From Pristiophorus japonicus (Eukaryota), in NCBI RefSeq assembly GCF_044704955.1, contig NC_091993.1:16430001-16494000 (forward strand): a DNA stretch of 64,000 nt. The letters run 5' to 3'. Positions 1 through 28,337 of this stretch are shown piece after piece. The notes below the pieces were generated by a model. The model did no database searches. It was given only the letters and a program-made list of their open reading frames with translations, and was not told the origin of the DNA. The translations under genes were made by a program, and so were the position numbers. Numbering within the stretch: the first letter of the stretch is position 1; every line of letters begins with the position of its first letter.

Positions 1-2436
1 TCCAAGTGTCTGTTTTTCGCGCCCAAGGTTGAATTTTTGGGCAGACGGATTGCTGCTGATGAAATCTGCCCAACAGAATCCAAAATCAAAGCAATTCATC
101 TGGCACCCAGGCCCCGGAATGTCTCAGAACTGTGCGCCTTTCTCAGGCTACTCAATTACTTTGGGAACTTTATGCAGAACTTGAGCATGCTGCTGGAGCC
201 TCTACACGTGCTACTCAAAGGGGTGCGATTAGTTTTGGGGGGACGCCCAAGAACGCGCCTTCAATAAGGCACGCAACCTTCTATGTTCCAACAGTGTTTT
301 AGCCTTTTTTGACCCAGGTAAGAAGCTAGTTCTTACATGTGATGCGTCAGCGTACGGGGTCGGGTGCGTTTTACAGCATGTCAATGATGCAGGTAAATTA
401 CAACCCATTGCTTATGCCTCCAGGTCATTTTCGCAGGCGGAGCGCGGGTACGGTATGGTTGAGAAGGAGGTGCTCGCGTGCGTGTACGGTGTCAAAAAGA
501 TGCACCAATACCTTTTCGGGGCCAAGTTCGCGTTAGAAACCGACCACAAACCCCTCGCGTCTCTGCTATCCGAGTGCAAGGCAATAAACGCCAATGCCTC
601 GGCGCGCATTCAGCGGTGGGCACTCATGCTGGCGGCTTACGACTACACAATAAGGCACAGACCAGACACAGACAACTGTGCCGACGCACTTAGCAGGCTA
701 CCCCTGGTGACCACGGAAGGGTCTGACGAACAGGACTGTGAGATGGTCATGACAATCAATGCCTTTGAATCCACAGGTTCGCCCATGATGGCTCGCCAAA
801 TCAGAGCCTGGACGACCACATTATTCTTAGTCAAAATTTGTGTTTTAACTGGTGACTGGGCAGAGGCTCACGATGCCTGCCCCGAGGAGATCAGACCTTT
901 CCATAGGCGCATGCATGAACTATCACTACAGCCAGACTGTGTGGGGCAGCCGAGTAGTTATGCCCTTGCGAGGCAGAGAGGCGTTTGTCCGGGAGCTCCA
1001 CCGTGAGCACCCAGGGATCGTCCTTATGAAGGCCATAGCCAGATCCCACGTCTGGTGGCCTGGCATTGACGCGGATTTGGAGCTCTGCGTCCGTCGGTGC
1101 ACCATTTGTGCCCAACTCAGTAATGCCCCCAGGGAGGCCCCCCTAAGCCCCTGGCCCTGGCCCACCAAACCGTGGTCGCGGATGCATGTAGACTATGCGG
1201 GCCGATTCATGGGCAGAATGTTCCTCGTAGTCGTCGATGCATTTTCAAAGTGGATCGAGTGCACCATTTTAAACTCGAGCACCACCTCCACCACTGTGGA
1301 GAGCCTTAGAACCATGTTTGCAACGCACGGAAATCCTGACATATTGGTCAGTGATAATGGTCCGTGCTTCACCAGCGTAGAATTTCAAGATTTTATAGTT
1401 GACCACGGCATAAATCACGTTATGACGGCACCATTCAAACCGGCCTCCAATGGCCAGGTGGAGCGAGCAGTGCAAACCGTTAAACAAGGCATGCTAAAAA
1501 TCCAAGGTCCCACGCTGCAGAGCCTCCTGTCGTGACTGCTGCTAGCATACAGATCTCATCCGCATTCGTTGACTGGGGTTCCCCCCGCGCAACTATTGAT
1601 GAAACGGACCTTAAAGACTAGGCTCTCGTTAATCCTCCCAGACATGCATGAAATTGTAGAGGCAAAGCGTTGGAAGCTAACTGAGTACCATGACCAAAAT
1701 TCGAGGGGGAGGTGGAATGAGATAGGGGACAAAGTTTTTGTACTAAACTATGGCAGGGGTCCCAAATGGCTTGCAGGGACAGTAACAGGCAAGGAAGGAA
1801 ACAGTCTACTGGTGGTACAAATGGACAATGGCCAAACCTGCCGGAGGCATGTAGACCAAGTAAAAAGTAGATTCACCAACAACACTGCAGAACCAGAGGC
1901 AGACTACAATGTGGAACTCACACCACACCTGGTAGACAGACAGAGGGAACAACCTGAGGAAAGGGCAGTCTCAACAGATAGCCCAGGCGAGATACCAGCA
2001 ACCATACTGAACGAAACGGACAGCCCAAGCGAGATACCAGCAATCACACCGAAAGAAAAACAGGCACCAAGTCAAACAACTGAACCACAACTAAGATGCT
2101 CCACACGAGAGCGTAGACCACCTGAGAGACTGAATCTATAAAGACAATAAGACCTTGGGGGAGGGTGATGTCATGTATCTCACACTACTGTATATAACTG
2201 TATCTTACTATGCTATACATGACTGCAACTAGATATGACCTGTAACCACAAGCATACTTTACCACCAGGGGTGCACTTGCAGGAGACACTGCATACCTGT
2301 TCCACACAGGTATATAAAGGCAGGTCTCAGGCAAGTGTGGCACTCGAGAGCTGTGAAATAAAGGTGCAGGTCCAGAGTGACCTTGACTTCAGCATGTGCC
2401 TCGTGTAAGTCTGTACTGCAGGGTCAGGACTTTACA
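1..2436 (+). mobile_element. Ty3/Gypsy (Mag-like) LTR retrotransposon, 3' part: end of RT, RNase H, integrase, PPT and 3' LTR; frameshifted
   Basis: RNase H motifs EKE.LA..YGV, TDHKPL and ADALSRL; integrase HHCC and D-D-E (HVDYAG, VSDNG, NGQVER); PPT ggggGAGGGTGA at 2157-2168; LTR 2169-2436 TG...CA with TATATAAA (2311) and AATAAA (2357). Confidence 0.93.
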
Positions 2437-10983: not shown

Positions 10984-13900
10984 TGTTATGCATGTAAACC
11001 TGTAAATACTATGTCTAGCCACCAGAGGGCTTGTCTCCTGGGGTCCCAGGGGATTCCACGGTCCCTTGGGAGCACCTGAATATAAGGAGGCCTCACAGGC
11101 TGCAGAGGCACTCTGAGATCTGTAATAAAGGACTATGGTCATACCTTACTTTGAGCTTGCAGTACCAGTCTGACTCTTTATTCAAGACGTAACAACTGGC
11201 GACGAGATACAGATGACGAACCCCACCGCAACAATGCAGAGAACTGAGGGCACCCTGGAGAAATTTTCGGAGGGAGACGATTGGGAAACCTTTGTGGAGC
11301 GACTCGACCAATACTTCGTGGCCAACGAGCTGGAAGGAGAAGCGAACGCTGCCAAACGAAGGACGATCCTCCTCACCATTTGCGGGGCATCAACGTATGG
11401 CCTCATGAAAAATCTGCTCACTCCAGCGAAACCCATAGACAAGTCGTACAATGAGTTGTGCACACTGGTCCGGGAGCATCTAAACCTGAAGGAAAGCGTT
11501 CTGATAGCGAGGTATCGGTTCTACACGTACAAGAGATCTGAAGGCCAGGAAGTGGCGAGCTACGTCGCCGAGCTAAGGCGCCTTGCAGGACATTGTGAAT
11601 TTGAAGGACACTTGGAGCACATGCTCAGGAACTTCTTTGTACTTGGCATTGGCCACGAAGTAATACTTCGCAAACTTTTGACTGTAGAGACCCCAAACTC
11701 GAGCAAAGCCATAGCGATAGCCCAGGCGTTTATCGCCACCAGTGACAATACCAAACAAATTTCTCAGCACACTAGTGCTGCTGCAAGTACTGTGAACAAA
11801 GTAACGTTGTTTTCGAATCGAAATGTACATGGCAGGACTTATATGCACATCCACAGATGACTCAGAGTCCACCATCAAGGCTGATGAATACTTGGTTGGT
11901 GCTGCGGGAGTGATCATCGTTTCCATTCATGCAGCTTCAAAAGGATACGTTTGCATTGTGGAACAATGGGACACCTCCAATGCATGTGCAAACCCTGCTA
12001 ATCCTGCAAACCAACATGTTGCAGAGGAGACAGATCCACAGTGGATCACGACGAATCAGAGTCTCAGACTGAGGAGGCAGAAGTATATGGGGTGCACACA
12101 TTTACCACAAAGTGTCCCCTGATAATGCTGAAGATTGAATTAAATGGACTCCCAGTGTCCATGGAGCTGGACACGGGTGCAAGCCAGTCCATAATGAGCA
12201 AAAAGACTTTCAATAAATTGTGGTGCAGCAAGGCTTCAAGGCCAGTCCTGACTCCCATTTGTACCAAACTGTGAATGTACACAAAGAAACTGATTTCTGT
12301 AATTGGCAGTGCTACTGTAAAGGTCTCCTACGATGGGGCGGTGCACGAGTTACCACTCTGGATGGTACCGGGCGATGACCCCAAGCTGTTCAGCAGGAGT
12401 TGGCTGGGACAGATACGCTGGAACTGGGACGACGTCCGAGTGCTTTCGTCCGTCGGCGACACCTCATGTGCCCAGGTCCTAAGCAAGTTCCCCTCGCTAT
12501 TCGAACCAGGCATCGGGAAGTTCCAAGGAGCAAAAGTGCAGATCCATTTGATTCCGGGGGCGCATCCATCACAAGACGAGAGCAGTACCGTACATGATGA
12601 GAGAGAGGGTGGCGATCGAGCTGGACAGGCTGCAACGAGAGGGCATCATTTCGACGATCGAATTCAATGAGTGGGCCAGTCCTATTGTTCCAGTCCTCAA
12701 GGGAGACGGCACCATCAGAATCTGTGGTGATTACAAAGTAGCTACCAATTGTTTCTCACTGCAGGATCAATACCCACTACCAAAAGCAGACGACCTATTT
12801 GTGACGCTGGCGGGAAGGAAAATGTTCACGAAACTTGACTTGACCTTGCCCTACATGATGCAGAAGCTGGAGGAATCATCGAAAGGCCTCACCTGCATCA
12901 ACACGCACAAAGGTGTCTTCGTTTACAACAGATGCCCGTTTGGGATTCGATCGGCTGCGGCGATATTCCAGAGGAACGTGGAAAGCTTGCTGAAGTCAGT
13001 CCTGCGCACCGTGGTCTTCCAGGACCACATCTTGGTTACAGGTCGGGACACCGTCGAGCACCTGCAGAACCTGGAGGAGGTTCTTAGTCGGCTTAATCGT
13101 GTGGGGCTCAGGTTAAAATGCTCGAAGTGCGTTTTCCTGGCACCTGAAGTGGAGTTCCTGGGGAGAAGAATTGCGGCGGATGGTATCAGGCCCACCGATT
13201 CGAAGACGGAGGCAATCTAGAACCCACCGAGACCACAGAACGTGACGGAGTTGCGGTCGTTTCTAGGACGCCTGAACTATTTTGGTAACTTCTTACCGGG
13301 TCTTAGCACATTGTCAGAACCACTCCACACTAATACTGCGTAAAGGAGATGTGGGGTAAAAGCCAAGAAAATGCCTTTGAGAAAGCTAGGAAGCTGTTAT
13401 GTTCAAACAAATTGCTTGTGTTGTACGATCCATGTAAACGTTTGGTACTAACATGTGATGCGTCGTCGTACGGGGTCGTGTGTATTGCAACAAGCTAATG
13501 AATTTGGGAAATTGCAACTGGTTGCTTATGCATCCAGAAGTCTGTCTAAGGCCGAGAGGGCCTACAGTATGATCGATAAAGAAGCGTTAGCATGTGTTTA
13601 TGGGGTAAAGAAAATGCATCAATATCTGTTCGGGCTCAAATTCGAATTGGAAATCGACCATAAGCCACTTATATCCCTCTTTTCTGAAAGTAAGGGGATA
13701 AATACGAATGCATCAGCCCGCATCCAGAGATGGGAGCTCACATTGTCCGCATACAACTATGCCATCCGCCACAGGCCAGGCGCAGAAAACTGTGCCGATG
13801 CTCTCAGTGGGCTGCCATTGCCCACCACAGGGGTGGAGATGGCACAGCCCGCAGATTTAGTCATGGTAATGGAAGCATTCGAAAGTGAGCAATCACCTGT

Positions 13901-14228
13901 TACCGCCCGACAGATTAGAACCTGGATGAGCCAGGACCCTTTACTGTCCTTAGTAAAAAACTGTGTACTCCACGGGAGTTGGTCTAGTGTCCCGTTAGCG
14001 ATGCAGGAAGAAATAAAGCCGTACCAGCGGCGCAAAGATGAAATGTCTATACAGGCAGACTGCCTGCTATGGGGTAATCGGGTAGTGGTGCCAAAAAAGG
14101 GCAGGGAAACCTTCATTAGTGATCTCCACAGCAACCACCCAGGCATTGTAATGATGAAAGCGATAGCCAGATCCCACATGTGGTGGCCCGGTATCGATGC
14201 AGACTTAGAGTCCTGTGTGCACAAATGT
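10984..14228 (+). mobile_element. Ty3/Gypsy (Mag-like) LTR retrotransposon: 5' LTR, PBS, gag, protease, RT, RNase H; truncated in the integrase zinc finger; decayed
   Basis: LTR 10984-11194 TGTTA...TAACA with AATAAA; PBS TGGCGACGAG at 11197 (complementary to the 3' end of tRNA-Ser(GCU)); gag W..F.ERL..YF.AN; protease LDTGA; RT RICGDYK and PFG, catalytic motif mutated to FQDH; several stops and frameshifts. Confidence 0.94.
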
Positions 14229-14542
14229 AGTCCTTCTTTACATATGCATGTTGCAGCTCGATGACATCATTGATACGGTGGGGTGGCTTGACCCATCCAC
14301 GTCCATGGCACGAACCTGGTATTGCAGTACTTCCAGGAACGGTGCAGTGGCTCTCGGCCTTTTGGCTAAGAGCATTGGCGCAGAGTGATCCTTGAATGGG
14401 CCCAAGGTGACCTCTGGCGTTTGTGATTTGACAAAGAATTGGAACGATTGGCTACGAATTTCAAAAAAAAAAAGACATCATTGAGACTGTCATTTTAACA
14501 CAGGCCAGAGTGGAGAATCCACCTGGAGCTAAAATCGGGGCC
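14229..14542. mobile_element. Right-end remnant of a MITE (paralogues at 24850-25100 and 28015-28270) that hosts the U2-derived insertion
   Basis: Shared tccttctttaca.atgcatgttgc...gatgacatcattgag...cctggag.taaaatcggggcc. Confidence 0.7.
14274..14473 (+). mobile_element. U2 snRNA-derived chimeric retroposon (SINEU-like) with A11 tail and 11-bp TSD
   Basis: 14314-14346 matches the U2 3' stem-loop IV region at 32/33; 14352-14374 matches U2 nt 7-29 at 22/23; TSD gacatcattga at 14263-14273 and 14474-14484. Confidence 0.88.
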
Positions 14543-24376: not shown

Positions 24377-25211
24377 GTAGTGAATCCTTTAAACGTCAGT
24401 AAGCTTCAGTCTTCGCGTTCATTTGAATTGCATTAACTTCGCTGAGAAAAGGGCGAGCAGAGGAATAACATGGAATATTGTTTTAAGCATTTGTCAGCTA
24501 TTATCACAAAGGGTAATTTCCAGCCTCTCCTCTCCTAAATGACCTATTTGCCCATTCGGGGCTTTCTAAATGCTGTTGTATGCGAGTAAGAAATTTGCTG
24601 ATGGGAGATGTCTGCCAAATCACTTGATCAGCAACAATATTCTGACTCATATTGAAATATTTGACCGCTTGGAGACAATGTTCCCTGTAGGCTGCACCAT
24701 TTTCTGTGTGGCCTGTTTCTTTCAATGCGTGGTCCCTTTAAATTTCTGCACGAGTGTTATTTCCAACGTAAAAGCTTGTGAGTGGCCTGTGTGGCACCTT
24801 GCAGTTTACTGTGCAGCCGCACGGAGAACATTGCTTGGGCGATATTAACCCTACCCACTCAGCAGAAACCTGGCGGGTGGCCAGTTAAAATCGCCCTGGC
24901 TCTTACCTGTCCGAAAGCCGCCGATCGCAACATCTGAAATTTTAGCCTGCTCTCCTGAGCAGGCAGCAAGGACACCCGTCCGGAGCTAACAGGGTCCTTC
25001 TTTACACATGCATGTTGCGGCCCGATGACATCATTGAGTCCCGACGGTAATTTTAATTCAGGCCTGAGCGAAGAATCCACCTGGAGTTAAAATCGGGGCC
25101 GAGCTTCTTTTGTTTTACCAATCTAATTTTCCAGGTGAAATATATCATAAGTTGGATGGTTAAGTTTAATAACTGGCAGTAGTCACTAAGGCATCGGTTG
25201 AGGGGTCTTAA

Positions 25212-26153: not shown

Positions 26154-28337
26154 TAAATGTGAGATACCCAGCATCTATCTGCTAAAGAGATTTTCCCTTA
26201 AATTTAGCAATAATATTTATGATAATGCCGAATGTATTTGCAGAACTCACTTCGAGTCGGATCGGACCAAGTCAAGGTGTTTCAGAAAAATTATAGTAAA
26301 ATATCACAGACATGATTTTGAACTACTGCACTTCTCGTCTGAAAAACCAGCAGCCAGCAATTGAAAATCGTGGGGGGCTCCTTGGTTGCTTCAATAACAC
26401 CCGAGGCCAGCCTAATAAATGTCATTTTCAGGTGCAAATGGCCTGCTCTGGCCCAGTTGTATCAGGTATTGAGCGGCCTCACCAGAGATCCATAAAGGGA
26501 GAGCTGATGGCCACTCAGAAAATGACCCCGGAAATTTAACAAGTTTTTTTTGGTGGCCAGCATTGGTGGCTCAGTGTGGATGCTGGCCAATACCCAGAAC
26601 TGGCGAGCTCTAGCAGGGCACTTGCATGGCAACTGCAGTTCAGCAGCATCATGTCCATGAGCGCCAGGCTTCAAAGTGGCATGGGCCTCATGTTGGCACC
26701 AATGGGTGGACAGAGCGGCCATTCTACCAAACTTGGCATTCATTTTGGGTACTGCTTGAAAATCGTTCCCCCGCACATCATAGAAAATTACACCAATAGC
26801 TTAGAATTCAAGAATTCGTTACTGGTTAGATTTTATGAATTAATGCTCTTGATGCAGAGCTTTATACAACAGGAGCAAACATTAGGAATTCAGGCATGGA
26901 GAAGCTTTTGCGCTGACGGTCCCAACATTTCCAATAAGTGTTGCATGAAGCTGTGCTCCAGGAGTTCTCATTCGTTAACTTTACCTCTCCGAGACATTAC
27001 TCTGCCTCAACGGTAATAGTATTCTTTCCTCTGTAAACATTGAGAACTTACGAAGCACATCCACAAGTTATGTTATCAGCAGTGTGCAAAACAGGAGTTA
27101 GCCTATAGGACTGACTACAAGGAGAAAATGTGTCAACGCACGAGCGTGAAAGTCCTTGCCATTTTAACAAAGGTAGAAATAAACCAGTTAGTGTCTTTGT
27201 TGAAACTGTGGTCAGAGAAATTTAAAGGAATGCCGAACATATTTGTTACTAATAATGCACAGTGTGATTTATACCCCTGCAAAAGAAAAGAAAGAACGTT
27301 ACATATACATCACACCTTTCACATTCTCAGGTCCCAAAGCGTTTCAGAGCTGATAAATTAATTTTGAAGTGTAGTCACTGTTACTATGTAGGTAAATGCT
27401 TCAGCCAATGTGTGCACCAGAAATTTCTGGTGGGGTTTCTTCAGTGGGATATTGGTGAAACCACTAGCGAGAAGACCTAAATGGCCAAAAGCAGCTAATT
27501 ACTCTGTTTCTCCAGGGTTTCCATCGATGTTCTAACATTGCGGTAGAAGAATAAAAGAACCCCAGAGTAATTCTCCGCTTTTATATTTAAATGTTATATT
27601 TCAAGCTCGTGACTTGTTAGTTTTTGGTATCCATTTAATAGTATATTATTTACTCTCTGCCAATTTTAACTTGGCCAAATTGACGTTAACGAGGTAGTAA
27701 CTACCCCGAAATGGGGTTGGTAATCTTACTGCCCTGTTTATATGCCTCTCTCACCACTTCTTGGCATTTTTAAAAGGAGCCTCTCACTGGGCAGAGATGT
27801 GTCTGTCTGTTTCAGGCAGTAGGCTGTTTTTAATATGCAAATCGGAGTTCTATGACATATATAGGACCCCGATTAGGCCATATTAGGACAGAACGGGCTG
27901 GAGTACGAGCTCCAACAAGGTTTACTGGCACTACAGCCAAAGAGGACCAAGAAAGATAAGTTTAAAACTATTTTTGCGGGATTGCGCCTCTGGGCTCCAG
28001 ATTGGGAGAGATTTTAACCCTACCTGCTCAGCAGAAACTTGGAGGTGTTGATAGTTAAAATCGCCTTGACTCTTACCTGTCCGAAAGCCACCATGATCCC
28101 AACATTTGCAAATTCAACCTGCTCGCCTGAGCAGGCAGCAGGGACACGTGCCCGGAGCCAAAAGGGTCCTTTTATATACGCATGTTGCGGCCTGATGATA
28201 TCATTGAGACCCAACGGTAATTTTAATTCAGGCCTGAGCGGGAAACCCCCCTGGAGTTAAAATTGTGGCCAATGTGCCTGTTGCTGCCCCAGACAGCGAT
28301 CGCCTAATATTGCCCCAGACAGCGATCGCCTAATATT

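Follow-up and report, generated by a model that had tools for sequence, protein, structure and literature searches.

A young U2/U1-derived SINE family with copies seated at the first base of U2 genes and probable transcription from captured U2 promoters

Introduction

SINEs multiply through an internal promoter carried in the head, and U1 and U2 genes have no internal promoter. The closest described counterparts of the element reported here, SINEU-1 through SINEU-3, have been reported only from crocodilians, and their transcription was left open (Kojima 2015, PMC4494074). It is still undemonstrated in the available portion of a later account (Kojima 2018, PMC5786205), and the available portions of PMC5381603 and PMC5753468 give no further SINEU host. 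In the literature searched, we found no U2/U1-headed SINE outside crocodilians, nor promoter capture by one; Repbase or Dfam may hold such an element. A second relevant system is that of Keno and Utopia, whose insertion site, according to the accessible part of PMC4640811, lies at U2 nt 37/38.

The present SINE belongs to the SINEU structural class, a placement made by comparing structural features. As in SINEU, the heads derive from U1 and U2, pieces of U1 or U2 have been added repeatedly, and the element is shorter than 500 bp (full copies here are 313 to 349 nt), with poly(A) and target duplications. Also shared are tandem insertions around one duplication, internal oligo-T without a Pol III head, Tx1 LINEs with snRNA heads as (here probable) partners, and a target held in common with the Tx1 LINE. 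The fusion of U1 onto U2 recalls SINEU-2, and the joining of a short U2 piece to a tail without known source recalls SINEU-1J. Crocodilian SINEU prefers Mariner-N4_AMi, whereas the hot spot of the present SINE is the U2 gene itself, and, unlike SINEU, the present SINE has copies joined at +1 to U2 upstream regions.

Results

The insert in the window

The window, that is, the whole 64,000-nucleotide stretch of Pristiophorus japonicus DNA analyzed here, contains at 14274 to 14473 a 200-bp insert that ends in A11 and is bordered by a perfect 11-bp duplication (Table 1), as the initial annotation had described. Both of the empty sites that it had named in paralogous host repeats are present, with the identical, unduplicated 11-mer at 25027 and an 11-mer with one mismatch near 28197. 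The region matching U2 stem-loop IV is where it had been placed, but the claimed count of 32 of 33 falls to 31 of 33 against the host type-1 U2 gene; the 22 of 23 given for U2 nt 7 to 29 is the same against that gene. The upstream hairpin that had been likened to stem-loop III is predicted to fold at 14278 to 14302, and the roughly 90 nt of non-U2 sequence proved to be an 88-nt family tail. An Rfam search of the insert returned the short 5' piece as the sole U2 signal (E 0.58).

TABLE 1 Features of the insert and of the host repeats around it, in window coordinates
Feature	Position	Strand	Basis
Host short repeat, interrupted by inserted SINE	14230..14542	+	Paralogue comparison
Left target-site duplication, 11 bp	14263..14273	+	Same word unduplicated at 25027
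3 nt at 5' truncation junction, no family match	14274..14276	+	Family match begins at 14277 (element nt 128)
Remodelled U2 stem-loop III, 5'-truncated	14277..14313	+	U2 124-153 of host type-1 U2 gene from 14283 (14283-14313), 24/31
U2 153-185, stem-loop IV	14314..14346	+	31/33 to host type-1 U2 gene
Linker at dimer junction	14347..14351	+	Exact-junction counts and full-copy comparison
Second U2 5' piece, nt 7-29, stem-loop I	14352..14374	+	22/23 to host type-1 U2 gene
88-nt non-U2 family tail	14375..14462	+	Tail searches
A11 tail	14463..14473	+	Read in sequence
Right target-site duplication	14474..14484	+	Read in sequence
Paralogous host repeat with empty site	24994..25100	+	Sequence comparison
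Paralogous host repeat with empty site, 1 mismatch in 11-mer	28166..28273	+	Sequence comparison

It is certain that the insert belongs to a young, dispersed U2/U1-derived SINE family, of which it represents a copy truncated at the 5' end. The suggestion of a 5'-truncated copy of a dimeric U2-headed SINE was sound, as longer full copies show the same composite. Of the permutation that had been proposed, the 3'-then-5' order is real; the pieces look permuted because the 5' part, including the U1 piece, is missing, and the window copy is a truncated composite rather than a true permutation.

Immediately upstream, a broken Gypsy-like LTR retrotransposon gag-pol occupies 11174 to 14229 and ends where the host repeat starts; it has motifs that we take, by eye, to be protease, RT, RNase H, and the start of an integrase. 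A second, diverged copy (68%) of the same Gypsy-like pol region lies at 906 to 1090.

A transposing family of composite elements

An 18-nt motif across the junction between the U2 3' and U2 5' pieces has 4,857 exact copies in the genome, and its reversed control has none, which bears out the earlier idea of an snRNA-derived SINE family. A search of the host's own 5.9-Gb genome gave 1,772 candidates, of which 40 were scored at 98 to 100% identity; all 40 tail matches scored were 100% identical. With 733 genome-wide copies of the window's tail type, neither the junction nor the tail is single copy; single-copy status would, according to the initial annotation, have counted against its reading. 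Sampled tails sit within the SINE in 30 of 30 cases for family A and likewise in 30 of 30 for its sister families B and C. Target duplications accompany 61 of 104 clusters (6 to 23 bp, median 15), and the flanks of dispersed copies are diverse. The unit is a transposing family rather than a collection of chimeras that arose separately.

Ordinary processed pseudogenes of U2, like snRNA-LINE chimeras, are also retroposed snRNAs with poly(A) and duplications, but, as summarized in PMC4494074, each is an independent one-off event. In the present family, by contrast, thousands of copies have the same fixed junctions. An ordinary U2 pseudogene, collinear and with each copy independent, was rejected on the composite order and the fixed junctions. 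The odd order of pieces in the window is all that recommends a one-off chimeric U2 pseudogene, a circular-RNA retrocopy, or an assembly artifact, and these are refuted by the exact junction counts, the 100%-identical tails, and the flanks and duplications, which differ among the 61 of 104 clusters with duplications, so that their probability is practically nil. The option of a circularized U2-like RNA, raised earlier, is unsupported with a junction fixed across thousands of copies; that of read-through may account only for the origin of the ancestral dimer (family C). A figure of 224,200 U2 "candidates" was discarded as a measure of copy number: in 38 loci of 10 kb that were sampled, the flanks contained no unrelated U2 copies.

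Longer copies, which the initial annotation had proposed seeking, were found with a U2 head and with varied flanks and duplications. They consist, in order, of U2 1-28, a U1 5' piece, the U2 3' half (an Sm-like T-run with stem-loops III and IV), a linker, U2 7-29, the 88-nt tail, and an A-run. The U2 1-28 head is exact against the host's own genes, the U1 piece corresponds to U1 7-57 (79%, E 3e-8), and Rfam U2 matches are found. The head junction has 2,443 exact copies in its A1/A2 form and 405 in its A3 form. U1 pieces vary between subfamilies, and recurrent addition of U1/U2 pieces is seen in families C, B, and A1 to A4 and in extra U2 1-46 extensions on some copies (L002/L003). Copies differ from their column majority by a median of 0.6 to 0.7% within subfamilies (39, 14, and 4 copies) and by 3.8% in a mixed group of 20 copies, in a sample biased toward query-like copies.

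One rival holds that source copies are transcribed when host genes or other elements happen to be read through into them, with template switching onto U2 snRNA restoring the U2 head each time. In its favor are the extensions and the varying U1 pieces, and Kojima 2015 (PMC4494074) proposed both template switching and upstream promoters. Repeated switching would not yield a head junction that is invariant in 2,443 plus 405 copies, however, and the copies have no upstream tags in common, which makes such an origin of the transcripts improbable.

Full copies fold with a z of about -5. Predicted stability is -27.9 kcal/mol for stem III of the SINE versus -14.8 for that of U2, and -20.8 kcal/mol for the U1 stem of the SINE versus -15.9 for that of U1. 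The loop word of stem IV is retained in 77 of 77 headed copies, and the branch-point recognition sequence is retained in just 5 of them and dropped in the other 72. The SINE RNA would keep stem-loops I, III, and IV and an Sm-like site yet drop branch-point recognition, and, by analogy with known snRNP biology, the retained snRNP-like parts may bind Sm or U2B'' proteins. Subfamilies A1 to A4 and family B have internal T runs of 4, 5 to 6, and 4, and Pol III transcription is disfavored because of the runs of 5 to 6 T. Stacks of copies around one shared duplication are common. At one locus (L157, about 660 to 1000, minus strand), U2 nt 13-52 occurs four times in tandem before a stacked SINE insertion.

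Target site preference

The nick context is RY/AW in 37 of 61 duplications, versus 9.6% expected (p about 1e-22), in agreement with the earlier statement that the target is not of the L1 type (TT/AAAA). U2 37/38 fits the RY/AW motif and is an insertion hot spot: among 943 sites, 14 dispersed family-A tails end there, with 0.011 expected, and among the loci listed those 14 tails sit in SINE stacks, not in genes. The 3' ends of Keno pile up at the same U2 37/38 site.

Copies at the first base of U2 genes

The host has two types of U2 gene. Type 1 (L034, G000:C1003) forms 765-bp tandem units with microsatellite spacers and no octamer within 260 bp upstream. Type 2 (L123, G000:C9:111 Mb) forms units of 18 to 21 kb with a PSE-like word. 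Across five contigs, the 271 type-1 units surveyed comprise 239 U2 genes, of which 6 have indels, together with 17 units occupied by the SINE and 15 by Keno; the two elements between them fill 32 units, or about 12%. In all 17 SINE units, 100 of 100 upstream bases are identical to those of the gene. Five units of the C19 array read, in order, upstream region, A3 SINE from +1, A-run, U2 38-191, and 3' flank, and array A-runs span 14 to 110 nt. The 17 array copies reflect few insertions, because they represent just 2 distinct sequences. The type-1 start motif has 292 matches in the whole genome, and A3 is attached to 17 of them. The same A3 variant is found at +1 of one type-2 U2 gene on C9, behind an unrelated upstream region, with 372 upstream bases exact and 214 of 214 downstream. 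Since the type-1 array and an unrelated type-2 gene both carry A3, seating in register happened at least twice.

The tail motif of the array variant has 207 exact copies genome-wide. Six dispersed copies of this variant were read, of which three have no mismatches to an array variant (334 nt; 341 nt with one gap; 178 nt) and three have 1 to 3. Among 77 dispersed heads, 16 begin at U2 +1 and 48 within nt 1 to 7; they stop at or within U2 +1 and carry no common upstream tag. Genome pattern searches gave no matches for A1/A2 and extended heads behind either known U2 upstream region and none for B/C behind U2 upstream regions; the promoter-fusion patterns required letters absent from the array variant, and A3 was found by reading the array instead. 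For the most numerous head type (2,443 junctions, including the window's tail type), no promoter-borne full-length copy was found, and we attribute the absent A1/A2 source, without proof, to array turnover or incomplete assembly. We also searched, allowing gaps of up to 32 nt, for dispersed copies with transduced U2 38-191 at the 3' end; the 5 matches all lie in U2 genes.

We propose, at a probability of about 0.7, that the SINE at U2 +1 is transcribed by the U2 promoter and that its RNA is copied elsewhere by a Keno-type LINE, with U2 promoter capture as the probable route of SINE transcription. Counting against it are the lack of an octamer in the 260 bp upstream of type-1 genes, the few insertions that the array copies represent, and the blank searches for promoter-borne A1/A2, B, and C copies. 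The main rival is a Pol II promoter of the SINE's own, in which CCAAT-like boxes of the tail would drive the element's own +1 or the next stacked copy, and the copies in U2 genes would be passengers. Such head-to-tail drive of the next copy is HeT-A-like. Three reverse CCAAT words occur in the tail of family A, the most numerous family, versus one in the B and C copies scanned; stacks sharing one duplication are common, the Keno 5' UTR has CCAAT and octamer words after the U2 head, and A1/A2 have no promoter-borne source among the copies found. These motifs are short and predicted from sequence, however, dispersed copies have no common 5' tags upstream of +1, and a tail-borne promoter leaves the exact +1 seating in two unrelated U2 gene types unexplained. 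We therefore consider it unlikely and retain promoter capture as the preferred reading.

Several loci combine the two elements with U2 sequence. Orphan type-1 U2 upstream regions head Keno outside the array at L330 (G000:C13:72547792) and L331 (G000:C14:76772668). At L331, a truncated family-A copy with the window's mid-tail motif is inserted into the Keno U2 head behind the orphan upstream region, an arrangement that can be taken to show how a new head and promoter are gained. In the type-2 gene region (L123 5688-6362), family-B copies are stacked at the nt-38 site of the U2 gene, behind a Keno 3' end.

A Keno-type Tx1 LINE as partner

The genome carries a Tx1 family with intact full-length copies in U2 arrays. 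Its ORF1 (577 aa) has zf-CCHC, and its ORF2 (1,145 aa) has Exo_endo_phos (APE endonuclease), RVT_1, and zf-RVT; we call this LINE Keno-type from its domain content, organization, and U2 insertion site. The APE endonuclease is a likeness to Keno as presented in the available part of PMC4640811. An ORF of at least 1,140 aa is present in 19 of 21 array copies, and the Keno copies in the 15 surveyed type-1 units are mostly seated like the SINE. At 14 junctions in arrays, U2 resumes at nt 38/39 behind the Keno 3' end; PMC4640811 places the start of this flank at nt 39, and the reading differs because U2 nt 38 is an A. The inserts ahead of U2 nt 38 in arrays comprise these 14 Keno junctions, 19 of the SINE, and one U2 with an indel, making Keno the sole autonomous insert seen there. 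Keno and Utopia, in the portion of PMC4640811 available, are autonomous LINEs, whereas here a non-coding SINE shares their site; and, unlike Keno and Utopia as described there, the SINE and the Keno-type LINE each have a U2 head and are seated at the gene's +1.

Exact Keno 5' ends number 146 genome-wide, and 33 of 40 that were read have a U2 head. SINE and Keno copies stack inside each other's heads. The U2 37/38 site is shared by both in arrays and dispersed stacks, and sharing of the motif at ordinary sites is weakly shown, with RY/AW in 2 of 6 calls at dispersed Keno nick sites and A at +1 in 4 of 10 (one call false).

Keno is probably the LINE partner of the SINE. The same family, with the same promoter capture, could instead be mobilized by L1, another Tx1, or Utopia: the SINE tail is unlike the Keno 3' UTR, the dispersed Keno nick calls are as given above, and Utopia uses the same U2 site (PMC4640811, available part). 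Against this stand the youth and intactness of Keno, the mutual stacking of the two elements in each other's heads, and the presence before U2 nt 38 in arrays of just Keno and the SINE, apart from the one U2 with an indel; mobilization by another LINE is very improbable.

Directly behind the U2 head, the Keno 5' UTR has a CCAAT word and a perfect octamer (L181 8200-8380, minus strand; L178 6080-6231), which resemble an snRNA enhancer moved inside and are possibly a candidate internal promoter. Dispersed Keno copies at L254, L256, L262, L268, L279, L281, L283, L288, and L290 share a 5' extension upstream of U2 +1 that ends in a word like the U2 type-1 flank, which points either to starts lying upstream or to the carriage of an older U2 flank. 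The unit of a 7.5-kb tandem U5 gene array (L014 1011-1124; L179 4053-4166; G000:C9, 203-224 Mb) holds a truncated family-A copy as well as Keno pieces, which were amplified along with the array.

Sister families and the history of the tail

Families B and C, with 621 exact tail motifs genome-wide, join a near-whole U2 to another U2 5' piece and then to a related tail of shorter length, a form shown by 30 of 30 copies sampled. In family C, the second U2 piece extends to U2 nt 38, the Keno site, and in 10 of 12 copies the first piece has 92 to 99% identity with the type-1 U2 gene of the host, the other two being confounded by neighboring sequence. Both families are nearer to the host U2 gene than family A. 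Of 30 unbiased copies, 5 show family A directly upstream of B/C, and none shows it downstream. We infer that the families appeared in the order C, B, A, within the host lineage. By comparison of the tails, the 88-nt tail of family A appears to be grown from the ~50-nt tail of families B and C, and the second U2 5' piece appears to be a relic of an ancestral unit of U2 5' piece plus tail. The close resemblance between family C and the host type-1 U2 gene favors a recent, independent origin, separate from that of crocodilian SINEU.

The comparison of the tail with LINE 3' UTRs that had been suggested gave no match to that of Tx1/Keno, nor was there homology to the Keno 5' UTR, and an Rfam search of the tail matched no family. 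U6-like words in the tail reach p 0.003 to 0.007 among 48 comparisons and are nonsignificant after correction; the same holds for a 12-nt word at window 14436 to 14461 that is common with U6 and partly complementary to the U6 3' end. The tail gave p 0.12 to 0.88 for alignment and p 0.03 for duplex formation with U4, and p 0.12 for a duplex with U6.

Discussion

We envisage a cycle in which Pol II would start at U2 +1 and read through the SINE and its long A-run, after which Keno ORF2 would nick DNA and prime on that A-run. We infer priming on the internal A-run because no dispersed copy trails U2 38-191 (gaps up to 32 nt). Ordinary sites would receive a promoterless, often truncated copy like that of the window. 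At a U2 gene, the U2 head of the cDNA would anneal to the gene's own first bases, and the SINE would then replace U2 1-37 and so turn into another source gene, along the lines suggested for R2 in 28S. Array turnover would spread and remove source genes, giving the successive subfamilies C, B, and then A, and the array would be a source rather than a sink of copies.

R2 is transcribed as Pol I cotranscripts, and the present SINE would use a Pol II snRNA promoter. The annealing step is drawn by analogy from R2, for which target-derived 5' sequence is proposed to anneal and to give uniform 5' junctions (PMC3774820, available part). Dependence on a host tandem array for transcription, as proposed here, is a further likeness to R2 and its SIDEs, although R2 uses a ribozyme and the present SINE is built from snRNAs (PMC3774820 and PMC3414825, available parts). 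R2 SIDEs are also non-autonomous riders, but they are internal deletions that stay in the array, whereas the present SINE is at thousands of outside sites (PMC3414825, available part).

At the named loci, a SINE is joined base for base to the upstream regions of two unrelated types of U2 gene, with an intact LINE, its probable partner, alongside, and such promoter-borne copies offer a testable answer to the question of how promoterless snRNA-headed elements are transcribed. Parasites occupy about 12% of the units surveyed in an array that encodes an essential snRNA. The family is young, with a median divergence below 1% within subfamilies, and may serve as a source of population markers. We hold it to be somewhat better than an even chance that the whole picture applies, in which the SINE lives by host snRNA promoter capture, the U2 head acts as a homing tag, the U2 array is the master locus for both LINE and SINE, and the RNA is a disarmed snRNA mimic. 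If true, SINEU would have arisen a second time, independently, among vertebrates, and the scheme could be a general rule for snRNA-headed elements.
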